NCBI GenBank assembly: GCA_022824305.1
Contig: JAJEAD010000089.1
Span: 81,756 to 105,755, forward strand
Direction: 5' to 3'
Source of the DNA: Gammaproteobacteria bacterium
Lineage (GTDB): Bacteria > Pseudomonadota > Gammaproteobacteria > HK1
Length of the DNA stretch: 24,000 nucleotides
Shown: positions 5,463 through 22,090 of the stretch, one piece after another
Position numbering within the stretch: position 1 is the first letter of the stretch
How the letters are laid out: each line of letters begins with the position of its first letter
Notes under the pieces: model-generated
What the model was told of the DNA's origin: nothing
The model's input: the letters and a program-made list of their open reading frames with translations, nothing else
Database searches by the model: none
Made by a program: the position numbers and the translations under genes

Positions 5463-7832
5463 ATGAGCGACACCGCGAGCATCGAGATCGACGGCCGGAC
5501 CCTGGAAGCGCCGAGAGGGGCGATGATCATCGAGGTCGCCGACCGGCACGGCATCCACATTCCGCGCTTCTGCTACCACCGCAAGCTGTCCATTGCCGCG
5601 AACTGCCGCATGTGCCTGGTCGAGGTCGAAAAGGCGCCCAAGCCTTTGCCCGCCTGCGCCACGCCGGTAATGGACGGGATGAAGGTGCGCACTGCCTCCG
5701 CCCTTGCGGCGGGAGCCCAGAAGGCGGTGATGGAGTTCCTGCTCATCAATCATCCCCTCGATTGTCCGATCTGCGATCAGGGCGGCGAATGTGAGCTGCA
5801 GGACGTCGCGATGGGCTACGGGCGCGGCGTCTCGCGCTTCTCCGAACGCAAGCGGGTGGTGGCGGACAAGAACCTCGGGCCGCTCATCGCCACCGACATG
5901 ACACGCTGCATCCATTGCACGCGCTGCGTGCGCTTCGGAGAGGAGATCGCGGGCATGCCGGAGCTTGGGGCCACCGGACGCGGCGAGCACATGGAGATCG
6001 GGACCTTCGTGGAGCAGGCGGTCGATTCGGAGATGTCCGGGAACGTCATCGATGTCTGCCCGGTGGGCGCTCTGACCTCGAAGCCCTTCCGCTTTCAGGC
6101 GAGGGCCTGGGAGATGGGCAGCCGGGACACGGTGGCGCCCCACGATGCGGTGGGGTCGAACGTGCACGTTCACGTCATGGGGGGACGCGTGAAGCGGGTG
6201 GTCCCACGGGAGAACGAAGCCGTCAACGAGGTATGGATTTCGGATCGGGACCGTTTCAGCTACGAAGGCCTGTACGACGAGGAGCGGCTACTCGAGCCGA
6301 TGATCAGGCGCAACGGCGAGTGGTCCGCCTGCGGGTGGGAAGAGGCGCTCGCCTTCGCCTCGCGGGGACTGCGATCACTCGTCTCCCGCCACGGCGCGGA
6401 CGCCTTCGGCACGCTGGTATCGCCGAACGCCAGCGTGGAAGAGGCCTACCTGCTGCAGAAGATGGTGCGTGGTCTCGGTGTCTCCGACATCGATCATCGA
6501 CTGCGCGACGCCGACTTCTCCGATCAGGAGCAGGCGCCGCTCTGCCCCTCGCTCGGCTGTTCGCTCGCCGAGGTCGAGACGCGCGACGCCGTGCTCCTCG
6601 TCGGCGCCTGGCCGCGCAAGGAAGTGCCCATCCTGAACCACCGGCTGCGGAAGGCGAGCCTCGCCGGGGCACGGGTCATGGTTCTGAATCCGGCGGACTA
6701 CGAGTTCAATTTCCGGGTGGACGGGCGCATCGTGGTTTCCCCGGACGCGATGGTCGACGCCCTCGCGAGCGTGCTGTCGGGATCTGCCGCCCCGGCCGAG
6801 CTCTGCCCCGGAGTGCGGGAAGTGGTGGATGGAGCGTCGCACTCCGAAGATGCCGCGGCGATCGCGAGCACGCTCGCGGACGCGGATCACGCGTCGCTGC
6901 TCCTCGGGCCGATGGTGGCCAGGCATCCGGAGGGGGCCCTGCTGCGCGCGCTCGCCCGCGCCCTCGCGTCGGCGACGGGCGCGTCCCTGGGCCAGCTCAC
7001 CGAAGGCGCGAACGCCGCGGGCGCGTGGCTTGCCGGCGCGCTTCCTCACCGGGGGCCCGGAGGTCGGAGCCTGGAGCGTCCCGGGCGTGACGCCCGATCC
7101 ATGCTGCGCGACGCGCGTCCGGGGTATCTGCTCTTCGGCATCGAGCCCGAGCTCGACTGCGGCGACCCCGCCCTGGCGTTGAGCGCGATGCGGGGCGCGG
7201 ATTTCGTCGCGGTCTTCACCGCCTACCGGAGCGAGGCCATGTCCCGGTACGCCGACGTGATGCTGCCGATCGCGCCCTACGCGGAGAACTCGGGCACCTT
7301 CGTCAACCTCGAAGGCCGATGGCAGAGCTTCGAGGCGGCGGTGCGGCCTCCGGGCGAGGCTCGTCCGGGATGGAAGGTGTTGCGGGTCATGGGAAACGTC
7401 CTCGACCTCGAGGGCTTCGACTACCTGAGCGCGGAGGAGGTCAGGGGCGAGGTCGAGAGCCTGGTGGAACAGGCTGCGCCCATTCGCGCCGCATGGCGTT
7501 CCGGAGAACGGACACCGTGGCCGCGGGAGGCCCTGTGCCGCCTGGGAAGCGTTCCCCTGTACGCCGCGGACGCGATCGTCCGGCGGGCGCCGGCTCTGCA
7601 ACAGACTCGGGACGCGGCATTTGCCGGCGTGTCGCTGAACTCCGCCGCGGCGGCCCGCCTCGGTCTCGAAGACGGCGCCCGGGCGACGGTTCGCCAGGGC
7701 GATGCCTGCATAAGGCTCCCCGTCTTCATCGACGATCGACTGCCCGACGGATGCGCCTGCCTCCCCGCCGGCGTGCCGCAGGCGGCGGCGCTCGGCCCGG
7801 ACATCGGGCCGATGCACGTCACGCCGGCCTGA
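5463..7832 (+). CDS. nuoG: NADH-quinone oxidoreductase subunit G
   Basis: 789 aa. The N-terminal Fe-S motifs are CYHRKLSIAANCRMCLVEV, HPLDCPICDQGGECELQD, CIHCTRCVRF and CPVGALT, followed by a molybdopterin-like domain. AAGAGGA RBS lies before the ATG at 5463. Confidence 0.95.
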   Translation: MSDTASIEIDGRTLEAPRGAMIIEVADRHGIHIPRFCYHRKLSIAANCRMCLVEVEKAPKPLPACATPVMDGMKVRTASALAAGAQKAVMEFLLINHPLDCPICDQGGECELQDVAMGYGRGVSRFSERKRVVADKNLGPLIATDMTRCIHCTRCVRFGEEIAGMPELGATGRGEHMEIGTFVEQAVDSEMSGNVIDVCPVGALTSKPFRFQARAWEMGSRDTVAPHDAVGSNVHVHVMGGRVKRVVPRENEAVNEVWISDRDRFSYEGLYDEERLLEPMIRRNGEWSACGWEEALAFASRGLRSLVSRHGADAFGTLVSPNASVEEAYLLQKMVRGLGVSDIDHRLRDADFSDQEQAPLCPSLGCSLAEVETRDAVLLVGAWPRKEVPILNHRLRKASLAGARVMVLNPADYEFNFRVDGRIVVSPDAMVDALASVLSGSAAPAELCPGVREVVDGASHSEDAAAIASTLADADHASLLLGPMVARHPEGALLRALARALASATGASLGQLTEGANAAGAWLAGALPHRGPGGRSLERPGRDARSMLRDARPGYLLFGIEPELDCGDPALALSAMRGADFVAVFTAYRSEAMSRYADVMLPIAPYAENSGTFVNLEGRWQSFEAAVRPPGEARPGWKVLRVMGNVLDLEGFDYLSAEEVRGEVESLVEQAAPIRAAWRSGERTPWPREALCRLGSVPLYAADAIVRRAPALQQTRDAAFAGVSLNSAAAARLGLEDGARATVRQGDACIRLPVFIDDRLPDGCACLPAGVPQAAALGPDIGPMHVTPA

Positions 7833-7853
7833 GCGGGGATTCCGGACCGGGGG

Positions 7854-8891
7854 ATGATCGACTCGCTCGTCAGCCTGGCGTGGACGGTGGCCAAAGTGCT
7901 GGCGATCCTCGTCCCGCTCGTCCTCGCCGTGGCCTGGTACACCTTCGCCGAGCGCAAGGTGGTCGGCTACATCCAGGTGCGCATGGGACCGAACCGGGTG
8001 GGTCCACGCGGCTGGCTGCAGCCGATCGCGGACGGGATCAAGCTCGTGCTGAAGGAGGTGATCATTCCCGCCGGGGCCAACCGCTTTCTCTTCGTCCTTG
8101 CGCCGGTGATCGCGCTGGGCGCCGCGCTTGCCGCGTGGGCGGTAGTGCCCTTCGGAGAGGGACTGGTGCTCGCCGACATCAATGCCGGCCTGCTCTACAT
8201 CCTGGCGATGACCTCGGTCGGGGTGTACGGGGTGATCATCGCGGGCTGGGCCTCCAACTCGAAGTATGCGCTGCTCGGGGCAATGCGTTCCGCGGCGCAG
8301 ATCGTCGCGTACGAGATCGCGATGGGATTCGCGCTGGTGGTGGTGTTGATGGCGGCGGGAAGCCTGAACCTGGGGGAGATCGTCAACGCGCAGGACGGGA
8401 GCATCCTGAACTGGTTCTGGCTGCCGCTGCTGCCGATGTTCGTGGTGTACATCATCGCCGGCATCGCGGAGACCAACCGTGCGCCCTTCGACGTGGCGGA
8501 GGGCGAATCCGAGATCGTGGCCGGCTTCCACGTCGAGTACTCGGGGATGTCCTTCCTGGTGTTCTTCCTCGCCGAGTACGCGAACATGATCCTGATCAGC
8601 CTCCTGATCAGCATCATGTTCCTGGGCGGCTGGCTCTCGCCCTTTCAGGGCATCTTTCCGGATCGGTTCACCGAGGGCTTTCCCCTCGGACCGGGCCCGC
8701 ACTGGCTATTGCTGAAGACCCTGTTCTTCATGTTCCTCTATCTGTGGTTGCGGGCGACGTTCCCGCGCTATCGTTACGATCAGATCATGCGTCTGGGCTG
8801 GAAGGTGTTCATCCCCTTGACGATCGTCTGGATAGTGGTGGTGGGGGTCGCGATCGTGCTCGACGTCCCGCCCTGGTTCGACGGGGCCTGA
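7854..8891 (+). CDS. nuoH: NADH-quinone oxidoreductase subunit H
   Basis: 345 aa polytopic membrane protein with [27 protein letters not shown] and [17 protein letters not shown] (ND1 family). Confidence 0.95.
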
Positions 8892-8907
8892 CGGGGAGGA
8901 AGATTCG

Positions 8908-9396
8908 ATGAGCAAGACACGTGGCTGGCTGAAGAGCTTCCTCCTGGTGGAGCTCTTCCGGGGGTTGATGCTGACGATTCGCTACATGTTCTCGGGCAAG
9001 TTCACGGTGCGCTATCCGGAGGAGAAGGCGCCGCAGTCGCCTCGATTTCGCGGGCTTCACGCCCTGCGGCGCTACCCGAACGGCGAAGAGCGCTGCATCG
9101 CGTGCAAGCTGTGCGAGGCGGTGTGCCCGGCCCTGGCGATCACCATCGATTCCGAGCCCAGGAAAGACGGCACCCGTCGCACCAGCCGGTACGACATCGA
9201 CCTCTTCAAGTGCATCTTCTGCGGATTCTGTGAAGAGGCCTGCCCGGTGGACTCCATTGTCGAGACCCGCATCTACGAGTATCACTTCGAGAAGCGCGGC
9301 GAGCAGATCATGACCAAGGACAAGCTGCTCGCGATCGGGGACCGCTACGAAGCGCAGATCGCGAGTGACCGCATGCAGGACGCGCTCTACCGCTGA
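8908..9396 (+). CDS. nuoI: NADH-quinone oxidoreductase subunit I (2x 4Fe-4S ferredoxin)
   Basis: 162 aa with [12 protein letters not shown] and [25 protein letters not shown] upstream. Confidence 0.96.
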
Positions 9397-12326: not shown

Positions 12327-13844
12327 ATGCCCGAACTCCCGTTGTTGAGCCTGCTGATCTGGCTGCCCATCGCCGGGGCATGCTGGGTTCTGATCGCGGG
12401 AGAGCGCGGAGGCGCGGCGCGATCGATCGCGTTCGCGGTCGCGCTGGTCACGTTGCTGGTGTCCATTCCGCTCTACACGGGCTTCGAGACCGACACCCAC
12501 GAGATGCAGTTCGAGGAGTACGCGACCTGGATCGACGCCTACCGGATTCACTATCACCTCGGCGTCGACGGCATCTCGTTGCCGCTCATCCTCCTGACCA
12601 CTTTCACCACCGTGCTCGTGGTGCTCGCGGGGTGGGATGTCATCACCCGCCGCCAGGCCCAGTACATGGCGGCGCTGCTCTTCCAGGAAGGGTTCATGAT
12701 CGGCGCCTTCGCGTCCCTGGACTCGATCCTGTTCTACGTGTTCTGGGAAGCGCAGCTCATACCGATGTTCATCATCATCGGAGTCTGGGGCGGACCGCGC
12801 CGCATCTACGCCACCATCAAGTTCTTTCTCTACACCTTCCTCGGTTCGGTGCTGATGCTCGTCGCGCTGCTCTACCTCTACCGGGAAGCCGGCTCCTTCG
12901 CGATCCTCGATCTCCATCACCTGCGCCTCGGACTGACCCCCCAGATCCTCGTGTTCATCGCGTTCCTGCTCGCCTTCGCGGTCAAGGTGCCCATGTGGCC
13001 GGTGCATACCTGGCTGCCGGACGCCCACGTCGAGGCGCCTACCGGGGGGTCGGTCATCCTGGCGGCCATCATGCTGAAGCTGGGCGGCTACGGATTCCTG
13101 CGTTTCAGCCTGCCGATCGCCCCCGATGCGAGCAGCGAGCTCGACTGGCTGCTCATCGCGCTCTCGCTGATTGCCGTGGTCTACATCGGCTTCGTGGCGA
13201 TCGTGCAGCCCGACATGAAGAAGCTCATCGCCTATTCCTCCGTCGCCCACATGGGATTCGCGACGCTCGGCTTCTTTCTCGTGTTCCGGCTCCTCGATGC
13301 CGGTGACGTGCAGGGTGCGATGCTCGGAGTGCAGGGAGGCATGATCCAGATGATCTCCCACGGCTTCATCTCCGGGGCGCTCTTTCTGTGCGTGGGCGTG
13401 ATGTACGACCGCCTGCACAGCAGGGAGATCGGAGACTACGGCGGGGTGGTGAACACCATGCCCGTCTTCGCCGCCTTCATGATGCTCTTCGCGCTGGCGA
13501 ATTCCGGCCTGCCGGGGACGTCGGGTTTCGTCGGCGAGTTCCTCGTCATTCTGAGCAGCTTCAAGGCGAACTTCTGGATAGCCTTCCTCGCGGCGACCAC
13601 TCTCGTTCTGGGGGCGGCCTACTCGTTGTGGATGTACAAGCGCGTGATCTACGGGCCGGTCGCCAACGAAGGGGTTGCGTCGCTCAGCGATCTGAACCGG
13701 CGCGAGTTCGCCATTCTGGGCGCGCTTGCCATCGCGGTGCTCGTCTTCGGAATCTGGCCGGCGCCTCTTCTCGACCTGATGGAACCGACGGTCCGCCATC
13801 TCGTCGAGCACGTCGGGCAATCGAAGCTCGGTCCGGGTCTCTAG
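12327..13844 (+). CDS. nuoM: NADH-quinone oxidoreductase subunit M
   Basis: 505 aa with FAVKVPMWPVHTWLPDAHVEAPTGGSVILAAIMLKLGGYG (ND4 family). Confidence 0.95.
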   Translation: MPELPLLSLLIWLPIAGACWVLIAGERGGAARSIAFAVALVTLLVSIPLYTGFETDTHEMQFEEYATWIDAYRIHYHLGVDGISLPLILLTTFTTVLVVLAGWDVITRRQAQYMAALLFQEGFMIGAFASLDSILFYVFWEAQLIPMFIIIGVWGGPRRIYATIKFFLYTFLGSVLMLVALLYLYREAGSFAILDLHHLRLGLTPQILVFIAFLLAFAVKVPMWPVHTWLPDAHVEAPTGGSVILAAIMLKLGGYGFLRFSLPIAPDASSELDWLLIALSLIAVVYIGFVAIVQPDMKKLIAYSSVAHMGFATLGFFLVFRLLDAGDVQGAMLGVQGGMIQMISHGFISGALFLCVGVMYDRLHSREIGDYGGVVNTMPVFAAFMMLFALANSGLPGTSGFVGEFLVILSSFKANFWIAFLAATTLVLGAAYSLWMYKRVIYGPVANEGVASLSDLNRREFAILGALAIAVLVFGIWPAPLLDLMEPTVRHLVEHVGQSKLGPGL

Positions 13845-13856
13845 GGGAAAGGGATC

Positions 13857-15293
13857 ATGCCCTTCGTCACGCCCGAGTTCCTTCCCGCTCTTCCGGAGAT
13901 CCTGCTCGCGGTCATGGCGTGCCTGGTCCTCCTCGTGGATCTCTACTTCGGTCGCCGGCACCCGTCCTGGGTGTTTCTGCTCGCCCAGGCCTCCCTCGTG
14001 CTGTGCGCGCTGCTGTGCATCGCGCTCTATCCCGAAGAGCCGACAACGACCTTCAACGGCACCTTCAGGAGCGACGGAATGAGTGCGGTGCTCAAGGTCT
14101 TCATGATCCTCGTCACCTACTTCGTTCTCTTCTATTCCAAGTTCTATCTCGACGTGCGGGACCTCTTCAAGGGCGAGTACTTCGTGCTCTCGCTCTTCGC
14201 GGTGCTCGGGATGATGATCCTGGTCTCCGCCGCCAGCCTGCTGACCCTGTATCTCGGCCTCGAGCTGATGGCCCTGTGTCTCTACGCCCTGGTGGCGCTG
14301 AACCGGGAGTCGTCGATGGCTTCCGAAGCGGCGATGAAGTACTTCGTGCTCGGCGCGCTCGCCTCGGGCACGCTGCTCTACGGCATGTCGCTTCTCTACG
14401 GCGTGACGGGGTCCCTGGAGCTCGATCGAATCCGCGAGTACCAGTCCGTGGGAGGGGAGATCGACATCATCCTGGTGCTCGGGCTGGTGTTCATCGTCGT
14501 GGGCGTCGCGTTCAAGCTCGGGGCGGCGCCCTTCCACATGTGGGTTCCGGACGTCTACGAAGGCGCGCCCACCTCGGTGACCCTGTTCGTCGGCACCGCT
14601 CCCAAGATCGCCGCGTTCGGCATGCTGATGCGTCTGCTGGTGGATGGGCTTGCCGGCGTGCAGGGCGACTGGATCGAGATGTTGACGATCCTCTCGGTCC
14701 TGTCGATGGCGGTCGGCAACATCATCGCGATCGCGCAGACCAACCTGAAGCGAATGCTCGCCTACTCCACGATCGCGCACGTGGGCTTCCTGCTTCTCGG
14801 GATCATTGCCGGTACCCGCGCCGGTTACGCGGCTTCGATGTTCTACGTGATCGTCTACGCGCTGATGGGCCTGGGGGCCTTCGGCATGATCATCGTGCTC
14901 GGAAGCAAGGGCTTCGAGTCCGACCGGCTGGACGACTTCCGCGGACTGAACGAGCGCAGTCCGTGGCTCGCTTTCCTGGTCCTGGTGCTCATGCTCTCGA
15001 TGGCGGGAGTGCCGCCCTTCGTCGGCTTCTGGGCGAAGTGGTCGGTGCTGCGCGAAGTCGTGGCGGCGGACCAGGTGTGGCTCGCCACGGTGGCGGTGGT
15101 GCTCGCCGTGATCGGGCTGTTCTACTACCTGCGCGTCGTGCGTCTCGTCTACTTCGAGGAGGGGCAGGAGGCTGCCCCTCTCGTCTGCGGCACCGACGTC
15201 AAGGTCATGATCAGCACCAACGCGCTGGCGATCCTCGCGCTCGGAGTGTACCCGAGCGCCCTGCTCGCACTGTGCGTCACCGCGCTCGGTTAG
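13857..15293 (+). CDS. nuoN: NADH-quinone oxidoreductase subunit N
   Basis: 478 aa with AFKLGAAPFHMWVPDVYEGAPTSVTLF and LKRMLAYSTIAHVGF (ND2 family). It is the last gene of the operon. Confidence 0.95.
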   Translation: MPFVTPEFLPALPEILLAVMACLVLLVDLYFGRRHPSWVFLLAQASLVLCALLCIALYPEEPTTTFNGTFRSDGMSAVLKVFMILVTYFVLFYSKFYLDVRDLFKGEYFVLSLFAVLGMMILVSAASLLTLYLGLELMALCLYALVALNRESSMASEAAMKYFVLGALASGTLLYGMSLLYGVTGSLELDRIREYQSVGGEIDIILVLGLVFIVVGVAFKLGAAPFHMWVPDVYEGAPTSVTLFVGTAPKIAAFGMLMRLLVDGLAGVQGDWIEMLTILSVLSMAVGNIIAIAQTNLKRMLAYSTIAHVGFLLLGIIAGTRAGYAASMFYVIVYALMGLGAFGMIIVLGSKGFESDRLDDFRGLNERSPWLAFLVLVLMLSMAGVPPFVGFWAKWSVLREVVAADQVWLATVAVVLAVIGLFYYLRVVRLVYFEEGQEAAPLVCGTDVKVMISTNALAILALGVYPSALLALCVTALG

Positions 15294-16183
15294 CCCTTTT
15301 CTCCTGCCGATCCGCGAAGCGGCGTTGCGAAGGTGCCGCCAGGGCCGAGGCGCGCAACGCGCTCACCGACCCTGATCGCGCGACCGGGCGCGAGCCCGGA
15401 TTCCCATTCGACCCCGAGCTCGGGACCGAACAACGCGATCACCGTCGACCCCATGTTGAAGCGGCCCATCTCGCCGCACTTCCCGAGAGCCGGCGGGGAG
15501 GCGTGGGAGCGGTAGTCGCGAACTTCCGTGCCGTGCCCTCGCGGCGGAGTCATCGGTCCGCACCAGGCCTGCTCGATGCCTCCCACGAACAGAGCGCCGA
15601 CCATGATCACGGCAAAGGAGCCGAGCTCTCCCTCGAAGAGCGAGGCGACCCTCTCGTTGCGCGTGAAGAGATTCGGGACGCGGCGGGTGTTTTCCGTCCC
15701 TACACTGAAGAGACGGCCAGGGACGTGCACCGTCTCGCAAAGCGTGCCCGAGAGCGGCATGTGCACCCGGTGATAGTTGCCGGGCGCGAGGTAGATGGTC
15801 AGAAAGCTGCCTCCCTCGAATCGGGCGCTTCGGAGCTCCGAGCCGCCAAGAAGGCGGCGGAGCGAATACCTGATTCCCTTTGCCTGGATCAGTGAGTCAT
15901 CACGTATCCGTCCGAGCTGCCCCAGGCGGCCGTCGGCGGGGGAGGCCACGCTGTCCCCGGCGGCGTCGAAGGGCCTGGCGCCAGGACGCAAGGGTCGGGT
16001 GAAGAAGGTGTTGAAGTCCGGGTACTGCGCGGGATGGGGGAGCAGCGCTTCGGACAAATCCACGCCGTATCGACGGACGAACCAGCGGATTTGCCAGTTC
16101 TTCCAGGGCCGAAAGCGGATGCGGGTTGCGCGGTACATCAGCGCGCCCAGCAAGCGTTGCGGGTAGAGATGCTGGAGCATCAC
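15290..16183 (-). CDS. psd: Phosphatidylserine decarboxylase proenzyme
   Basis: 297 aa with FNTFFTRPLRPGARP, YLAPGNYHRVHMP, NLFTRNERV and the self-cleavage site GRFNMGSTV. The start is GTG at 16183 or the adjacent ATG at 16180. Confidence 0.92.
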   Translation of the reverse strand: MMLQHLYPQRLLGALMYRATRIRFRPWKNWQIRWFVRRYGVDLSEALLPHPAQYPDFNTFFTRPLRPGARPFDAAGDSVASPADGRLGQLGRIRDDSLIQAKGIRYSLRRLLGGSELRSARFEGGSFLTIYLAPGNYHRVHMPLSGTLCETVHVPGRLFSVGTENTRRVPNLFTRNERVASLFEGELGSFAVIMVGALFVGGIEQAWCGPMTPPRGHGTEVRDYRSHASPPALGKCGEMGRFNMGSTVIALFGPELGVEWESGLAPGRAIRVGERVARLGPGGTFATPLRGSAGEKG

Positions 16184-16321: not shown

Positions 16322-16397
<76 letters not shown>

Positions 16398-16535
16398 GGT
16401 GACTGATTCGATGCAGATTCAATGTTACCCCGGGGCAGTGCGGAGTGTCATCTCGACGGGTACTCACCCCCCCGTTCTTGTTGCTGGCACCGGGTCGCGC
16501 GGATACCATCGAGAGCCCGCTCCGGGCCCACCACC

Positions 16536-17498
16536 ATGCATGATCCGCTGCCGCTGCTCACTCCTTCGGACTTTCCTCCTCTGCGCCGCGCAGCACTCGA
16601 AACCGTCCAGGTCAATCTGGGCTATCGGTGCAACCTGAGTTGCGTCCATTGCCATGTCTCGGCCGGCCCCAACCGCACCGAGGAAATGGACGGCGCGACG
16701 GCGGAGCAGGTGTTGCGCTACCTCGAGCTGTCTTCCGCGCATACCCTGGATCTGACCGGTGGCGCGCCGGAGCTCAATCCCCACTTTCGGGCAATGGTGA
16801 GACGGGCGCGGGAGCTCGGGCGGCAGGTGATCGACCGCTGCAATCTCACCATCCTCGAGGAGCCCGGCCATGAAGACCTGGCGGCGTTTCTCGCTTCGCA
16901 CGGGGTCCGGGTCGTCGCTTCCCTCCCATGCTACGAGGAAGAGAACGTCGCGAGGCAGCGTGGCGGCGGCGTGTTCGACGCCAGTATCCGCGCCATCCGG
17001 CGCCTGAACGATCTCGGCTACGGAAAGGAAGACGGGGAGCTCAGTCTCGATCTTGTGTTCAACCCCCAAGGCACCAGTCTCCCGCCGGACCAGCGGGAGA
17101 TGGAAGCCAGGTACAAGCAGGTTCTGTGGGATCGCTACGGCATCCGATTCAATGACCTGTTGACGCTTGCCAACATGCCGGTCGGCCGTTTCGGCAGCGT
17201 GCTCATCTCCAGGAAGGAGTTCCACGACTACCTGCACCAGCTCAAGTCCGCGCACCGGCATTCCAACCTCGAGTCGGTGATGTGCCGTACCCTCATCAGC
17301 ATCGATTGGCAGGGCTACGTCTACGACTGCGACTTCAACCAGATGCTGGGGCTCCCGCTGAGGATGAACGGGTCGCTGCGGACCCATCTCTCCGATCTCT
17401 TCGACGAGGACTTGCCGGGACATCGAATCGCGGTGCGCGCTCACTGCTACGGCTGCACCGCGGGGCAGGGCAGCAGTTGCGGCGGCGCCCTCGCCTGA
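16536..17498 (+). CDS. Radical SAM / Cys-rich C-terminal domain protein (ArsS-like, rSAM_SeCys family, all-Cys form)
   Basis: 320 aa from the ATG at 16536. VNLGYRCNLSCVHCHV carries the CX3CX2C motif (16629-16652), followed by LTGGAPELNP. The C-terminus is HCYGCTAGQGSSCGG. The longer ORF from 16422 is possible but adds a non-conserved-looking leader. Confidence 0.85.
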   Translation: MHDPLPLLTPSDFPPLRRAALETVQVNLGYRCNLSCVHCHVSAGPNRTEEMDGATAEQVLRYLELSSAHTLDLTGGAPELNPHFRAMVRRARELGRQVIDRCNLTILEEPGHEDLAAFLASHGVRVVASLPCYEEENVARQRGGGVFDASIRAIRRLNDLGYGKEDGELSLDLVFNPQGTSLPPDQREMEARYKQVLWDRYGIRFNDLLTLANMPVGRFGSVLISRKEFHDYLHQLKSAHRHSNLESVMCRTLISIDWQGYVYDCDFNQMLGLPLRMNGSLRTHLSDLFDEDLPGHRIAVRAHCYGCTAGQGSSCGGALA

Positions 17499-18208
17499 GC
17501 GCGGAGATCCATCGTTCGCAGGGGGCGCTGCGACTCTCCATCGTCGTTCCCGTCCTCGATGATGCGGCGGCGCTGCGGGATCGGAGCGACGAGCTGCGGG
17601 CCCTGGGAGGCGCGGTCCACGAGGTGATCATCGTGGACGGGGGCAGCACCGACGACAGCTTCGAGATCTCCCGCACTCTCACCCGCAAGTGCTTCTCGAC
17701 CGGCCAGGGACGCTCGCGGCAGATGAACGAAGGAGCGAGGAGAGCGAGCGGGGACGTGCTCGTCTTCCTGCACGCGGATACGCGCCTCCCGAAAGGCGCG
17801 CCACGTCGGCTGGCGCAGGCGCTGGCGGACTCGAACGCGCTCTGGGGCCGTTTTGACGTGCGCCTTTCCGGCGAGCACTGGATGTTCCGGGTGATCGAAG
17901 GGGCGATGAACTGGCGATCGCGGCTCACCGGCATCGCTACCGGGGACCAGGCGATCTTCGTGCGCAAGGTCGCGTTCGAGAGGGCGGGGGGATTTCCCCT
18001 CATCCCCCTCATGGAGGATGTCGCGCTCAGCCGGAAGCTGCGCCGCCTGGCAAGGCCGGTCTGCCTGCGTGAGCGCGTCGTGACTTCGAGCCGCCGTTGG
18101 CAGCGCGACGGGATACTGAGGACCGTTCTGCTGATGTGGTGCTTACGTCTCGCATACGCGCTGGGCGCGGACCCGGGGCTTCTCCACCGCGTCTACTACC
18201 GGAGTTGA
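17477..18208 (+). CDS. GT-A/GT2-like glycosyltransferase (transferase 2, rSAM-associated type)
   Basis: LSIVVPVLDD, IIVDGGSTDDS, VLVFLHADTRLP and ATGDQAIFVRK motifs. There is no in-frame ATG or GTG between the upstream gene's stop and the first conserved strand. The TTG at 17477 is proposed; CTG at 17495 and 17528 are alternatives. Confidence 0.75.
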   Translation: MRRRPRLSAEIHRSQGALRLSIVVPVLDDAAALRDRSDELRALGGAVHEVIIVDGGSTDDSFEISRTLTRKCFSTGQGRSRQMNEGARRASGDVLVFLHADTRLPKGAPRRLAQALADSNALWGRFDVRLSGEHWMFRVIEGAMNWRSRLTGIATGDQAIFVRKVAFERAGGFPLIPLMEDVALSRKLRRLARPVCLRERVVTSSRRWQRDGILRTVLLMWCLRLAYALGADPGLLHRVYYRS

Positions 18209-18912
18209 GAACGGACTTGTCGCTCCGTGCGCTCCCGCTGCCGTCCGTGCCGGTCAGTGTCTTCGCCCGCGCGCCGGTGCCCGGGCGGACCAAGACGCGC
18301 CTGATTCCGGTCCTCGGAGCGCGGCGGGCCGCCGAACTGGCGGCGCGGATGACCCGCCTGACTCTCGAGCGCGCGGCGGAGGCCGACCTGGGACCGCTCA
18401 CGCTCTGGTGTGCCCCGGGCCCCGACGCATTCCTGCGCGCCCTCGCCGAGGAGTTCGGCGCCGGACTCCGAACACAACCGGGCGGGGACCTGGGCAGTCG
18501 CATGCACCATGCACTGCGCTGGGCGCTCGAGGGACATCCCGCGGCGGTTCTGGTCGGAAGCGACTGTCCCTTCCTTTCGGCCGAAGACCTTCGCAGGACG
18601 CGCTCCCTGCTCCTCGAAGGAAGCAGCCGGGCGGTGATCGGGCCCGCCTGCGACGGCGGCTACTACCTCATCGCCTTGCGCGAAGTCGACGAGTCGCTCT
18701 TCGAAGGTGTCCCCTGGGGAGGAGAGAGGGTGCTGGAAGTCACACGCCGTCGCCTGAAGCGCCTCGGCTGGCGCTGGGAAGAGCTCGCCTCGAGACCCGA
18801 CGTCGACCGTCCCGGCGACCTCGTCCACGTGAAGGATCTCCTCTCGTCGTCGGGAGAGCCCCCTGCGCGCGGGCGAGCCGGGCGCGACGGGCATTCGGAT
18901 GCGGGCGTCTGA
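18205..18912 (+). CDS. DUF2064 / CofC-MobA-like nucleotidyltransferase-fold protein (transferase 1, rSAM-associated type)
   Basis: VFARAPVPGRTKTRL, VLVGSDCPFLSAEDL and IGPACDGGYYLIAL motifs. The start is uncertain: TTG at 18205 (overlaps the upstream TGA), TTG at 18217 (GGAG 12 nt upstream) or GTG at 18247. Confidence 0.75.
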   Translation: MRTDLSLRALPLPSVPVSVFARAPVPGRTKTRLIPVLGARRAAELAARMTRLTLERAAEADLGPLTLWCAPGPDAFLRALAEEFGAGLRTQPGGDLGSRMHHALRWALEGHPAAVLVGSDCPFLSAEDLRRTRSLLLEGSSRAVIGPACDGGYYLIALREVDESLFEGVPWGGERVLEVTRRRLKRLGWRWEELASRPDVDRPGDLVHVKDLLSSSGEPPARGRAGRDGHSDAGV

Positions 18913-18936
18913 GTCGGGGAAGGGAAGGTCAGGGAT

Positions 18937-19008
18937 TCGAATTCAGAATGGAAGGTAATATAAAACAATAAGATAGATTCCTTTCATAATCTATTTTATT
19001 GAATTCGA
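18937..19008. repeat. Inverted repeat TCGAATTCA / TGAATTCGA bracketing the AT-rich island
   Basis: The 9-nt arms lie at 18937-18945 and 19000-19008 and are perfect reverse complements. Each contains GAATTC. The interior is about 20-25% G+C by hand count. Confidence 0.5.
18971..18996. repeat. AT-rich hairpin/palindrome AGATAGATT-N8-AATCTATTT
   Basis: The potential stem is 9 bp (one G-U if RNA) with an 8-nt loop CCTTTCAT and T-rich 3' flank. This could be a weak terminator for the upstream cassette or a protein-binding palindrome. Confidence 0.35.
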
Positions 19009-19027
19009 GGCAAGTCGGGGCTAAGCT
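18999..19027 (+). promoter_or_regulatory. Candidate sigma70-type promoter for mrcB
   Basis: TTGAAT (18999-19004), a 17-nt spacer, then TAAGCT (19022-19027), 30 nt upstream of the mrcB ATG. The match is weak and rests on motif reading only. Confidence 0.25.
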
Positions 19028-19056
19028 CCCACGAGGTGACGAGCACCTGAGAGTCG

Positions 19057-21402
19057 ATGGCACGAGCGCGCATCCGCAATACCCGAGGCGCAGGTGGCAG
19101 ACGCCGAACGTCCCCGCGGCGTTCCCGCCGGCGCGGCAAGCGCGGGCGAGCCTCGACGCGGCTGCGCTCGCTTGCCATGCGGGCGACCGTGATGGTCGCC
19201 GTTCTCGCCCTGGGCTGGGTCGCCTGGCTCGATCTCGACATGCGGGCCAAGTTCGAGGGCAAGCGATGGTCGCTGCCCGCTCGGATCTACGCTCGACCAC
19301 TGGATCTCTACGCCGGGGCGAGGCTCGCGCCGGACGAGTTCGAGCGCGAGCTCGCATTGGCGGGCTACCACCGGAGCCCGGAGCCCCGCAGGCCCGGCAG
19401 CTATCGTCGCGAGGATTCCCGTTTCCGATTGATCGCGCGCGAGTTTCGCTTCTGGGACGGCCATGAGCCCGAGCGCACTCTGGAACTGGACTTCGAGCGC
19501 GGCCGGCTCGTCTCTCTCTCGGAAGGGAGTCGGAAGGTTTCGCTCGCGAGGCTCGATCCCGCGGAAATTGCCCAGATTTATCCCGCCCACCGCGAGGACC
19601 GCATTCTCGTCTCGCTCGAGGAGGTGCCTCCGCTCCTCGTGAAGGGCCTGCTGGCGGTCGAGGACCGGGAATTCCTTTCCCACCACGGGATCTCGCTGCG
19701 AGGGATCGCACGGGCAGCCTTCGCCAATCTCCGGGCCGGCGGCGCAGTGCAGGGCGGCAGCACGCTGACGCAGCAATTGGCGAAGAACTTCTTTCTGACG
19801 CCCGAGCGCAGTCTGTGGCGCAAGGCGAACGAAGCGCTGCTCGCCGTGCTTCTCGAGGCGCGCTACGAGAAGTCGGAGATCCTCGAGGCGTATTTGAACG
19901 AGGTCTTTCTCGGTCAGCGCGGCCGCCGGGCCATCCACGGATTCGGGCTTGCCGCCTGGTACTACTACCGCCGGCCGCTCCAGGAGCTGCGCAGCGAGGA
20001 GCTCGCTCTCCTCATCGGGCTGGTGAAGGGCCCCTCCTTCTACAACCCTCACCGCCACCCCGAGCGGGCGCGGGCCCGGCGGGACACGGTGCTGAGAGTC
20101 ATGGTGGAGCAGGGCGTGATCCCGGCGGCCGAGGGGAAGGCGGCCCGCGAGCGTGGGCTCGGAGTCGGTAGAGCCGGTGGAGTGGCGCGTTCCTCCTACC
20201 CGGCCTTCGTCGACCTCGTCCGCCGGCAAGTGCGACGCGACTACGATATCGAGAGCCTTCGCACCGAGGGGTTGCGGATCTTCACTACCCTGGACCCGAG
20301 CGTGCAGGCGTCGGCCGAGCAGGCCATGTCGGGGCAGATTGCGAAGCTCGAAGCGTCGAGGGGCGCGCGCGCTGCCCCGCTCCAGGGCGCGCTTGCGGTG
20401 ACCGCGACCGGTACCGGGGAGGTCCTGGCGGTAGTCGGGAGCCGGGATCCCGACGATTTCGGCTTCAATCGCGCGCTGGACGCGGTCCGCCCGATAGGAT
20501 CGCTTGCCAAGCCCGCGGTGTACCTCGCCGCGCTCGCGCACCCGGACCGGTACACGCTGGCGAGCCCGGTGTCGGACGCACCGGTGCGCGTCGAAGGCAG
20601 GACGGGCAAGGCGTGGACCCCGGCGAACTACGACGGACGCTCCCACGGAGAGGTTCCGCTCTACGAAGCCCTCGCCCGGTCCTACAACCAGGCCACGGTG
20701 CGCATCGGCCTCGACATCGGGGTCGACGCGGTTGCCGATTACCTGCATCGACTCGGGGTGCAGCGCCGTATCGACGTCTATCCGGCGATGATGCTGGGAG
20801 CCTTCGAGCTCTCCCCGTTGGAGGTGGTGCAGATGTATCACACGCTGGCTTCGGGCGGATTTCGGGTGCCGCTGCGCTCTATCCGGGAGGTGACGGACGC
20901 AAGGGGGCGAAAGCTCTCGCGCTACGGAGTCGCGGTATCCCCCGGGGTAGCTCCCGAGCTCAACTTCCTCATGGTCAACGCGCTCGAATCGGTGATGCGC
21001 GAGGGTACCGGCCGATCGGCTTCCCGGCGCCTGCCCGAGGGCTTCGTCAGCGCGGGGAAGACCGGAACCACCGACGATCTTCGGGATAGCTGGTTCGCGG
21101 GATTCGGCAGCGACCGCCTCGCGGTGGTCTGGCTGGGTCACGACGACAACTCTCCCGCCGGACTGACGGGTGCGACGGGCGCGCTCGCGGTATGGACGGA
21201 ACTCATGCGCCGCATCGATCCGACGCCGCTCGAGCTGCAGCCTCCACCGGGGATCGAATGGCACTGGGTCGACGTGCAGTCGGGACACCGCACCTCACCC
21301 GGCTGCCCCGACGCCCGGCGATTCCCCTTCATCACCGGGTCCGAGCCCTCTCCCGGGCGATGCACGACGAGAGCCGCGCTGAATGAGCGTGCCACGAGTT
21401 GA
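19057..21402 (+). CDS. mrcB: Penicillin-binding protein 1B (bifunctional glycosyltransferase/transpeptidase with UB2H domain)
   Basis: 781 aa with a basic cytoplasmic tail, a TM helix, and GKRWSLPARIYARPL (UB2H region). The GT51 motifs are AVEDREFLSHHGIS, GGSTLTQQLAKN and RKANEA. The TPase motifs are SLAKP, SYN and KTGTT. It is collinear with E. coli PBP1B from memory. Confidence 0.93.
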   Translation: MARARIRNTRGAGGRRRTSPRRSRRRGKRGRASTRLRSLAMRATVMVAVLALGWVAWLDLDMRAKFEGKRWSLPARIYARPLDLYAGARLAPDEFERELALAGYHRSPEPRRPGSYRREDSRFRLIAREFRFWDGHEPERTLELDFERGRLVSLSEGSRKVSLARLDPAEIAQIYPAHREDRILVSLEEVPPLLVKGLLAVEDREFLSHHGISLRGIARAAFANLRAGGAVQGGSTLTQQLAKNFFLTPERSLWRKANEALLAVLLEARYEKSEILEAYLNEVFLGQRGRRAIHGFGLAAWYYYRRPLQELRSEELALLIGLVKGPSFYNPHRHPERARARRDTVLRVMVEQGVIPAAEGKAARERGLGVGRAGGVARSSYPAFVDLVRRQVRRDYDIESLRTEGLRIFTTLDPSVQASAEQAMSGQIAKLEASRGARAAPLQGALAVTATGTGEVLAVVGSRDPDDFGFNRALDAVRPIGSLAKPAVYLAALAHPDRYTLASPVSDAPVRVEGRTGKAWTPANYDGRSHGEVPLYEALARSYNQATVRIGLDIGVDAVADYLHRLGVQRRIDVYPAMMLGAFELSPLEVVQMYHTLASGGFRVPLRSIREVTDARGRKLSRYGVAVSPGVAPELNFLMVNALESVMREGTGRSASRRLPEGFVSAGKTGTTDDLRDSWFAGFGSDRLAVVWLGHDDNSPAGLTGATGALAVWTELMRRIDPTPLELQPPPGIEWHWVDVQSGHRTSPGCPDARRFPFITGSEPSPGRCTTRAALNERATS

Positions 21403-21412
21403 GGAGACGACG

Positions 21413-22090
21413 ATGAGAGCGCATCAACAGGTCGGCGCCGCCGCGCGAGAGTCCGACCTTCCCGGCGCCGTGCGGCGCGCACTTCGGATCGGGGCGCGGC
21501 ATGGCGGAGTCGTCGTGGTCATGCTCGCTCTCGGCGCCTGCGCGGGCCGGACTCCGGCGCCGGTGGAGAGCCGCGTCGACGTGCCCGAGGCGCCCCAGTT
21601 GCCTGCCAGGACCCCGACGTCCGAGCTTGCCGTTTCCGACTCCGCCGCATCCGAAACTGCGTCCGGCGCCGTGGAAGCCGCTCCCGAGGCGCCGCCTCCC
21701 GAGGCGCAAGCGGCGGGTGATGCCACACCCGAGACCGAGAGCACGGTCACACGGCTGGCGGCGCTCAATCCCGCAATCATCGACCTGCTCAACGCCGCCA
21801 GCGCGCACAGCGCCGCGGGGCGCCACGACGGGGCCGCGGCGGCGCTGGAGCGTGCTCTCAAGATCGAGCCGGCCGATCCCGGATTGTGGCACCGCCTGGC
21901 GCGGGTCCGTTTCGATCAGGGCAAGCCCGACCTCGCGGAGGCGCTCGCGGCAAAGTCCAACAGCCTCGCCGCCGGAGACGAGAACCTGCAGGCACAGAAC
22001 TGGCGCCTCATCGCCAAGGTCCGCCGGAGGCTCGGAGACGCGTCGGGGGCGGCCGATGCGGCGGCGCGCGCCTCCCGCGTGCTCGACTGA
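21413..22090 (+). CDS. Predicted lipoprotein with a Pro/Ala/Glu-rich linker and C-terminal TPR-like repeats (LpoP-like candidate PBP1B activator)
   Basis: ATG at 21413 with a GAGGAG RBS 6 nt upstream. An alternative GTG at 21470 gives a compact signal peptide MRRALRIGARHGGVVVVMLALGAC. The lipobox is LGAC (Cys codon 21539-21541). A low-complexity linker follows, then AAGRHDGAAAALERALKIEPADPGLWHRLARVRFDQGKPDLAEALAAKS. Confidence 0.7.
   Translation: MRAHQQVGAAARESDLPGAVRRALRIGARHGGVVVVMLALGACAGRTPAPVESRVDVPEAPQLPARTPTSELAVSDSAASETASGAVEAAPEAPPPEAQAAGDATPETESTVTRLAALNPAIIDLLNAASAHSAAGRHDGAAAALERALKIEPADPGLWHRLARVRFDQGKPDLAEALAAKSNSLAAGDENLQAQNWRLIAKVRRRLGDASGAADAAARASRVLD

Follow-up and report, generated by a model that had tools for sequence, protein, structure and literature searches.

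The closest described system is the cyanobacterial arsenosugar pathway. According to the literature, arsS is co-transcribed with arsM in Synechocystis and acts at the first committed step of arsenosugar synthesis, in which the radical S-adenosylmethionine (SAM) enzyme ArsS adenosylates a trivalent dimethylarsenic species, DMAs(III), to DDMAA (5'-deoxy-5'-dimethylarsinoyl-adenosine) in a redox-neutral reaction (PMC13598754 and a 2026 bioRxiv preprint citing Cheng et al. 2021 and Xue et al. 2019). This chemistry has been published for the cyanobacterial enzyme only. For the subsequent steps, the current literature offers just the remark that "the adenine can then be removed"; the enzymes leading from DDMAA to arsenosugars and arsenosugar phospholipids are unassigned, and these compounds dominate marine organic arsenic. 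Bacteria have been proposed as an overlooked source of arsenosugar phospholipids. Here, we analyzed a 24,000-nucleotide stretch (the window) of contig JAJEAD010000089.1 from an uncultured gammaproteobacterium, in which an arsS-like gene is followed by two transferase genes. On balance, and with somewhat better than even confidence, we consider that this trio turns dimethylated arsenic into an arsenic-containing riboside via ArsS and the two transferases. Its parts are as follows.

16536-17498, plus strand: arsS (open reading frame (ORF) 1), ATG start, TGA stop, 320 aa; TIGR04167, Radical_SAM and DUF3641
16629-16652, plus strand: CX3CX2C motif CNLSCVHC (C32/C36/C39) of arsS, which binds the SAM-cleaving [4Fe-4S] cluster
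17442-17486, plus strand: C-terminal motif HCYGCTAGQGSSCGG of arsS (C304, C307, C315)
17477-18208, plus strand: glycosyltransferase family 2 (GT2) gene, TIGR04283 (ORF2), TTG start, TGA stop, 243 aa
18217-18912, plus strand: DUF2064 gene, TIGR04282 (ORF3), TTG start, TGA stop, 231 aa

A preliminary description of this DNA, made from the sequence alone, had reported three same-strand reading frames with overlapping or abutting ends at 16536-18912, and indeed arsS overlaps the GT2 gene by 22 nt and a gap of 8 nt separates the GT2 stop from the DUF2064 start. The motifs pointed out there (CNLSCVHC, the Cys-rich tail, the GT2 motifs, and the DUF2064 signature) were all found in place, and the proposed membership in TIGR04167, TIGR04283, TIGR04282 and the corresponding Pfam families was borne out by hidden Markov model scores that all exceeded the cut-offs, with E-values from 1e-54 to 1e-134, far past chance. 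The three genes make up a real, tightly packed operon; operons like it are widespread and have been catalogued before, and the trio in the window is the minimal form of a module that RefSeq names arsenosugar biosynthesis. NCBIfam 20.0 calls the first family "arsenosugar biosynthesis radical SAM (seleno)protein ArsS" and both transferases "arsenosugar biosynthesis glycosyltransferase"; RefSeq plasmid records use the arsenosugar names, and JGI keeps "rSAM/selenodomain-associated transferase 2". The earlier view that the cassette has no established product and belongs to an unknown pathway must therefore be given up for ArsS, all three families now being named for arsenosugar biosynthesis, and still applies to the transferases, which carry their names by association.

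ORF1 scored 445.9 bits against the curated equivalog model TIGR04167 (cut-off 300), aligning to model positions 2-303 of 303, and also matched Radical_SAM (PF04055) and DUF3641 (PF12345, 179.5 bits). Both the CX3CX2C cysteines and the HCYGCTAGQGSSCGG tail were invariant in our ArsS alignment (A1), and the tail is kept in cyanobacterial ArsS. Full-length identity to the arsM-linked ArsS of Pseudanabaena was 43%, and all conserved Cys residues of this cyanobacterial enzyme except C132 are shared. If the arsenic reading holds, ORF1 is probably ArsS and would carry out the 5'-deoxyadenosylation of DMAs(III) to DDMAA. The family is large, with more than 8000 clusters of homologues. A review (PMC13188914) lists TIGR04167 among the selenoprotein families, with GxxU as its motif; by our own reading of this motif, C315 appears to correspond to the selenocysteine position of some family members. 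The AlphaFold model of ORF1 had low confidence precisely in the loop that holds the cluster and in the Cys-rich tail (pLDDT 73), and no geometry was drawn from it.

The distribution of the trio was investigated in two sets of loci: the best 80 of more than 598 relatives from an ArsS-alignment scan with one genome per GTDB species (genome loci), and 80 loci from a reciprocal, DUF2064-centred scan of JGI metagenomes (metagenome loci). All but one of the genome loci (79/80) belonged to Pseudomonadota, with ArsS proteins 57-67% identical, and the remaining one came from a metagenome-assembled genome labelled Deinococcota. Among 60 genome loci with at least 3 kb downstream of ArsS, both transferases were present in 45, one in 7, and neither in 8, and 20 genome loci other than the window had a contiguous trio, equally tightly coupled and in the same gene order. 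From the reciprocal direction, the GT2 gene lay directly upstream of the DUF2064 gene in 53 of the 54 metagenome loci with room for it, and of the 34 with 2 kb or more upstream, 28 contained ArsS. Among the six ArsS-less loci, four had a VTT/FAD-oxidoreductase gene upstream of GT2, and since three contigs (L123, L125, and L136) begin inside this gene, ArsS may lie past the contig edge. Such strong co-inheritance, a check that the preliminary description had called for, implies that the trio is a real unit.

Many relatives carry extended versions of the cluster. A fusion of DedA (VTT) and pyridine-nucleotide-disulfide reductase was found beside ArsS in 34/80 genome loci. Other members of extended clusters were DUF547 (12 loci), DUF3047 (13 loci), and the "N-terminal-to-SelD" oxidoreductase TIGR03169 (13 loci), and in 17 loci ArsS was immediately followed by a protein of ~340 aa that lacks annotation and has a weak Metallophos match (E = 0.016). 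To our knowledge, none of these partners has a known role in arsenic metabolism. The extended clusters occur mostly in Betaproteobacteria (L012, L029, L036, L050, L051, L057, L061, L073, L120, L146, and others). In plasmids of Burkholderia glumae and B. thailandensis (L090/L091), the ArsS region also contains S-methyl-5'-thioadenosine phosphorylase (MTAP), a second radical SAM enzyme similar to the selenoprotein TrsS (106 bits, below its cut-off), a YiiX-like cysteine hydrolase, an ECF sigma/anti-sigma pair, CcdA and thioredoxin, and an MFS transporter. Clusters of antisense ORFs in the related loci were set aside as spurious without scanning.

The link to arsenic comes mainly from ArsM partners. 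Clustering of neighbouring ORFs placed an ArsM-family methyltransferase inside the ArsS cluster in 14/80 genome loci and 8/80 metagenome loci. When five of these genes were scored individually, three passed curated cut-offs: those of L020 and L042 the arsenosugar-ArsM model NF038099 (549 and 545 bits vs 400), and that of L062, a canonical ArsM directly after the trio, NF008823 (365 vs 263 bits). In L042 the gene order is ArsM-ArsS-GT2-DUF2064. A commoner ArsM-like type, present in nine loci (L008, L026, L035, L040, L044, L047, L065, L068, and L070), fell below every NCBIfam ArsM cut-off, its best score being to the arsinothricin-type ArsM model. It belongs to a family of more than 8000 clusters named by NCBI "methyltransferase domain-containing protein", and aligns to the solved Cyanidioschyzon ArsM (CmArsM) with Cys72, Cys174, and Cys224 kept. 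As these are the As(III)-binding residues of CmArsM, the commoner type is probably an under-annotated clade of arsenite methyltransferases. An ArsM-like gene was also found ~0.8 kb upstream of arsS on a Cupriavidus chromid.

Two further observations bear on the same link. In a neighbor-joining tree, the window clade stands beside L042 and L008 (both ArsM-linked) and L007; ArsM-linked ArsS proteins were scattered over the tree, with an ArsM-linked nearest neighbour in only 6/15. In addition, plasmid pPg_02 of Pseudanabaena galeata (L092) has the order arsR ... TVP38/DedA - MerA-like ("mercuric") reductase - arsM - TVP38 - arsS, with pst genes adjoining, and its arsM passes NF038099 as well. DedA and MerA-like partners are thus common to cyanobacterial and proteobacterial ArsS clusters, a partnership that spans phyla whereas that with the transferases does not. 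Taken together, the ArsM, tree, and DedA/MerA-like links make an arsenic-independent role of the ArsS family unlikely. On the other hand, ArsM links elsewhere do not establish the presence of ArsM in the organism of the window; a search with the L008-type ArsM tied none of the best 120 of ~8000 matches to contigs of the 75-81% ArsS relatives, an uninformative sample.

What the two transferases might do after ArsS is suggested by MTAP. An MTAP gene is built into or placed beside the ArsS/transferase cluster in at least five lineages: the Burkholderia plasmids L090/L091 have the order MTAP-TIGR04283-TIGR04282-FAD oxidoreductase, MTAP lies directly upstream of ArsS in L033 (482 vs 453 bits), L048, and L171 (MTAP-ArsS-GT2-DUF2064), and it is divergent from ArsS in L019. 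By our own estimate, about 0.1 adjacencies per 160 loci would be expected by chance for a single-copy housekeeping gene, and the linkage is therefore far above chance. DDMAA, like 5'-methylthioadenosine (MTA), is a 5'-substituted 5'-deoxyadenosine; phosphorolysis would give an alpha-ribose-1-phosphate derivative, and the MTAP-containing operon orders point to a ribose-1-phosphate intermediate in need of activation.

Based on these considerations, a route may be proposed, although its three steps after ArsS are less certain than the arsenic link itself. DMAs(III) would be supplied by an ArsM encoded elsewhere in the genome, or as methylated arsenic from neighbouring microbes, and converted by ArsS to DDMAA. 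An MTAP-type enzyme, presumably also encoded elsewhere in the genome, would then remove adenine by phosphorolysis to yield 5-deoxy-5-dimethylarsinoyl-alpha-ribose-1-phosphate. In the second step, the CofC/MobA-like TIGR04282 protein might couple this arsenoribose-1-phosphate to a nucleotide, generating a nucleoside diphosphate (NDP)-arsenoribose. In the third step, the TIGR04283 protein might act as an inverting transferase that places the arsenoribosyl group on an acceptor of the glycerol type, giving a beta-riboside, with glycerol-3-phosphate or the phosphatidylglycerol head group as candidate acceptors. Natural arsenosugars are beta-ribosides, which is the configuration that inversion of an alpha-linked donor would produce. 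Their common aglycone is glycerol or glycerophosphoglycerol, and that of arsenosugar phospholipids is the phosphatidylglycerol head group, which makes the two acceptors the most economical choice. The pathway may end in a membrane lipid, namely an arsenosugar phospholipid; this suggestion is our own and is unrelated to the nearby psd or mrcB genes. The metallophosphoesterase-like gene of 17 loci, which is absent here, would fit, by analogy, a GpgS/GpgP-like scheme of transfer followed by dephosphorylation.

The features of ORF3 are compatible with the second step. It scored 185.2 bits against TIGR04282 (cut-off 134), a model whose type is hypothetical equivalog only, and 100.2 bits against DUF2064 (PF09837), and carries VFARAPVPGRTKTRL, GSDCP, and GPACDGGYYLIAL; the invariant motifs of the family are P-x-x-G-x-x-KTR(L), G-x-DCP, and PAxDGGY. 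A match to PDB 3CGX (5.7e-19), a family member of solved structure, was accompanied by secondary matches to CofC TIGR03552 (2-phospho-L-lactate guanylyltransferase; 2.2e-9) and NTP_transf_3. Since the CofC score is below the cut-off (37.2 vs 105 bits), ORF3 is, as judged from these profiles, a relative of CofC and not a member, and is best described as a CofC/MobA-like putative nucleotidyltransferase. Enzymes of the CofC/MobA group join a phosphate monoester to a nucleoside monophosphate, and formation of NDP-arsenoribose is the natural reading of such chemistry for ORF3. Its start may be TTG 18217, preceded by GGAG at 18201-18204, or TTG 18205, in which case ORF2 and ORF3 would share 4 nt.

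ORF2 scored 266.3 bits against TIGR04283 (cut-off 182), matched Glycos_transf_2 (PF00535), and carries LSIVVPVLD, VDGGSTD, and FLHADT. Its start was assigned to TTG 17477, the only start codon available ahead of the conserved domain and also the one chosen by the public gene caller. AlphaFold gave a confident GT-A fold (pLDDT 90.2), and the top fold matches (the membrane GT2 PcManGT, WrtF, ArnC, TarP, and MpgS/GpgS) are GT2 enzymes that use NDP-sugars. Invariant residues included D54, H99-x-D101, TGDQ, E180-D181, and S204-x-RRW; the ED and RRW motifs resemble those of inverting, cellulose-synthase-like GT2s, a comparison that is our own and not a tool result. The C-terminal helices look amphipathic in our reading.

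Several observations weigh against an arsenic role of the trio. The ~45 kb around the cassette that could be read (the window and ~10 kb on each side, within a 236-kb ENA metagenome scaffold) contained no arsM, arsR, acr3, or other ars gene, no MTAP, and no phosphoesterase, which extends to the flanks the absence of arsM, other ars genes, and a phosphoesterase already reported for the window. An ArsM-type gene was likewise absent within 10 kb in 66/80 genome loci and in 18/20 minimal trios; none of 49 Burkholderia plasmids with ArsS appeared among the ArsM-family matches listed (10/29 genera named), and a published Modicisalibacter gene table includes the two transferases and no arsM. In the Pseudanabaena cluster no TIGR04282 or TIGR04283 gene lies near arsM and arsS, so the transferases are not universally needed for arsenosugars. 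No function assignment for either transferase was found in the literature, and the hypothetical-equivalog status of TIGR04282 also counts here. Finally, the thiol-redox proteins and the selenium-linked TIGR03169 of the extended clusters could fit other metalloid or chalcogen chemistry equally well.

These points lend themselves to an explanation in which the same chemistry acts on a non-arsenic substrate in the trio-only lineages: another soft nucleophile, for example a methylated species of selenium, tellurium, or antimony or a metabolite bound to a thiol, would be adenosylated and then made into a riboside. Besides the missing ars and ArsM genes, it can draw on the selenoprotein members of TIGR04167 and on the TIGR03169, DedA/VTT-disulfide reductase fusion, CcdA and thioredoxin, and TrsS-like radical SAM genes of extended clusters. 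We regard it as unlikely: ORF1 scores as an ArsS equivalog and keeps the cyanobacterial conserved Cys residues except C132, its nearest tree neighbours include ArsM-linked loci, DedA and MerA-like partners recur in the cyanobacterial arsR/arsM/arsS cluster, and we know of no non-arsenic substrate for any member of the ArsS family. A related idea, in which the trio-only lineages, with the module stably inherited at a housekeeping locus without arsM, use it in an arsenic-independent role and place a 5'-modified ribose from another adenosylated substrate, cellular or environmental, on a membrane glycerolipid, seems to us quite improbable.

Alternatively, the trio could be linked to arsenic with other roles for the transferases, the DUF2064 protein activating an acceptor or phospho-acid, as CofC does, or being itself a glycosyltransferase, and the GT2 protein decorating an arsenical with a common nucleotide sugar. 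NCBI labels both proteins glycosyltransferases, PDB 3CGX was deposited as a "putative nucleotide-diphospho-sugar transferase", CofC acts on 2-phospho-L-lactate according to its family description and not on a sugar-1-phosphate, and the GT2 fold neighbours GpgS and MpgS use ordinary NDP-sugars and 3-phosphoglycerate. This assignment is nevertheless doubtful and rates as quite unlikely, as the orders MTAP-GT2-DUF2064 in Burkholderia and MTAP-ArsS-GT2-DUF2064 in L171 point to a ribose-1-phosphate that needs activation, and the known arsenosugars lack a second sugar, as is established in their chemistry.

The surroundings of the operon comprise housekeeping genes on both sides.

Upstream of psd: nuoA-N
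15290-16183, minus strand: psd
16322-16397, minus strand: tRNA-Ala(cgc)
16398-16535, plus strand: promoter and 5' untranslated region of the operon, bounded by tRNA-Ala(cgc) and the start codon of arsS
18913-19056 (144 nt): AT-rich spacer between the operon and mrcB, in a genome of roughly 66% GC
18937-19008: AT-rich nested inverted repeat in this spacer, marking the 3' boundary of the operon
Start ATG 19057 or 19177, downstream of the spacer: mrcB (PBP1b), 875.9 bits
21383 or 21413 to 22090, downstream of mrcB: TPR lipoprotein gene with an LGAC lipobox

The start of mrcB is ambiguous between ATG 19057, which gives the longest ORF with an Arg-rich N-terminus, and the public gene call at 19177. 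The TPR lipoprotein, which has a long Ala/Pro/Glu-rich linker and looks like an LpoP-type activator of PBP1b, may start at ATG 21383, 20 nt before the end of mrcB, or at ATG 21413, 10 nt after it, the latter being the choice of the public gene caller. Beyond it lie tRNA-Met and an OpuAC-type binding protein gene, and the additional 10-kb flanks contain only carB, greA, ftsJ, ftsH, glmM, tpiA, secG, and a betaine-type ABC transporter. Long antisense ORFs run across the region (e.g., 16464-17444 on the minus strand, 13388-15895, and 19021-21288 on the minus strand, and others), as do out-of-frame ones; these were treated as high-GC artefacts and not as genes.

Scans of the operon and its surroundings revealed no Rfam element. 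No convincing sigma-70 match was seen on the plus strand, so the promoter scan did not locate the promoter, and inverted repeats in the 5' region 16398-16535 were only weak. Two repeat pairs make up the spacer repeat (18937-18945/19000-19008 and 18966-18979/18988-19001), which fails the intrinsic-terminator pattern in the terminator scan around the operon. The nested repeat is identical in the same-species contigs L001-L003 and not kept in the 81% relative L087, which has a different, though likewise AT-rich, spacer; the spacer may contain a terminator or regulatory element, act as the promoter region of mrcB, or be a small target of insertions. In L002, a contig of the same species from another sample, a 541-aa minus-strand ORF (7387-9327) is inserted directly after the spacer and mrcB is cut down to its transpeptidase part, which is a strain-level insertion or deletion; the 541-aa ORF had no Pfam match even at E <= 1.

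The trio is intact in relatives whose ArsS is 81% and 75% identical (GT2 70% and 64%, DUF2064 56% and 52%), and both keep the nuo-psd-trio order; neither mrcB nor the TPR gene comes after the trio in the 75% relative. The GC content of the operon was measured as equal to that of its flanks, in line with what had been described, and a genomic island at tRNA-Ala was ruled out on this ground and by the synteny of the locus in the two relatives. In distant relatives the trio stands beside chemotaxis genes, on plasmids, or within redox/ArsM clusters, so that the psd/nuo side of the context is synteny within the lineage only. An arsenic-independent core envelope function tied to psd, mrcB, and the LpoP-like lipoprotein through a 5'-deoxyadenosyl- or nucleotide-sugar-derived modification, which the preliminary description had favoured, is very improbable despite the housekeeping locus, its ordinary GC, its stable inheritance in the two relatives, and the resemblance of ORF2 to membrane-associated GT2s: the neighbours are syntenic within one lineage only, the 75% relative already lacking mrcB and the TPR gene downstream of the trio, none of the envelope genes recurs beside the trio across the 160 loci, psd lies on the opposite strand past a tRNA gene and mrcB behind an AT-rich spacer, and the wider family has ArsM-type genes embedded in the cluster of many relatives.

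The cassette itself, being already catalogued and named, would not surprise a specialist. What is new is modest: its minimal form at a housekeeping locus without arsM in an uncultured gammaproteobacterium, and the DedA and MerA-like partners common to ArsS clusters across phyla. The recurrent MTAP linkage is also new and suggests concrete chemistry for the post-DDMAA steps. With an MTAP gene recurrently joined to the two transferases, the minimal trio becomes a compact candidate, amenable to testing, for the steps still without an enzyme: phosphorolysis, activation with a nucleotide, and transfer with inversion to an acceptor of the glycerol type. If the arsenic reading is true, conversion of methylated arsenic to sugars or lipids would be expected in many uncultured Gamma- and Betaproteobacteria, with a bearing on arsenic cycling and on arsenic speciation in food chains. 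If instead an arsenic-independent role is true, the trio would make a previously unrecognised class of lipid or metabolite in heterotrophic Proteobacteria.

Compared with known systems, ORF1 shares its domain layout, the CX3CX2C motif, and HCxGCTAGxGSSC at the C-terminus with ArsS from the pathway of Synechocystis sp. PCC 6803, the only studied relative, already pointed out in the preliminary description with ArsM as its partner, in agreement with the literature. Unlike cyanobacterial arsM-arsS, the arsS of the window has no co-transcribed arsM and no ars gene nearby and is coupled to two transferases, and its product has Cys where some TIGR04167 members have selenocysteine. Relative to the extended clusters, the trio lacks the DedA-disulfide reductase fusion, DUF547, DUF3047, TIGR03169, the metallophosphoesterase-like gene, ArsM, and MTAP. 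The ArsL/ArsM pathway of arsinothricin likewise forms a C-As bond by radical SAM chemistry, with ArsM as the partner; however, ArsL moves a 3-amino-3-carboxypropyl group and not a 5'-deoxyadenosyl group, and ORF1 is no ArsL homologue by family assignment. Salvage of MTA and 5'-deoxyadenosine offers a parallel for the removal of adenine, with the difference that the window has no MTAP gene and that action of MTAP on DDMAA is an analogy only. ORF3 belongs to the same fold family as CofC/FbiD and the MobA-like NTP transferases and has their N-terminal nucleotide-binding motif P-x-x-G-x-x-K-T-R-L, whereas it differs from CofC/FbiD in its DUF2064 family and its genomic context. ORF2 shares the GT-A fold, the DGGS-x-D nucleotide-binding motif, the ED pair, and RRW with PcManGT, DPMS, ArnC, GpgS/MpgS, and TarP, GT2 enzymes that work at membranes or on glycerate/glycerol phosphates, yet is only 17-21% identical to these enzymes (TM-score about 0.6), has no transmembrane helices, and carries H-A-D in place of the usual DxD.

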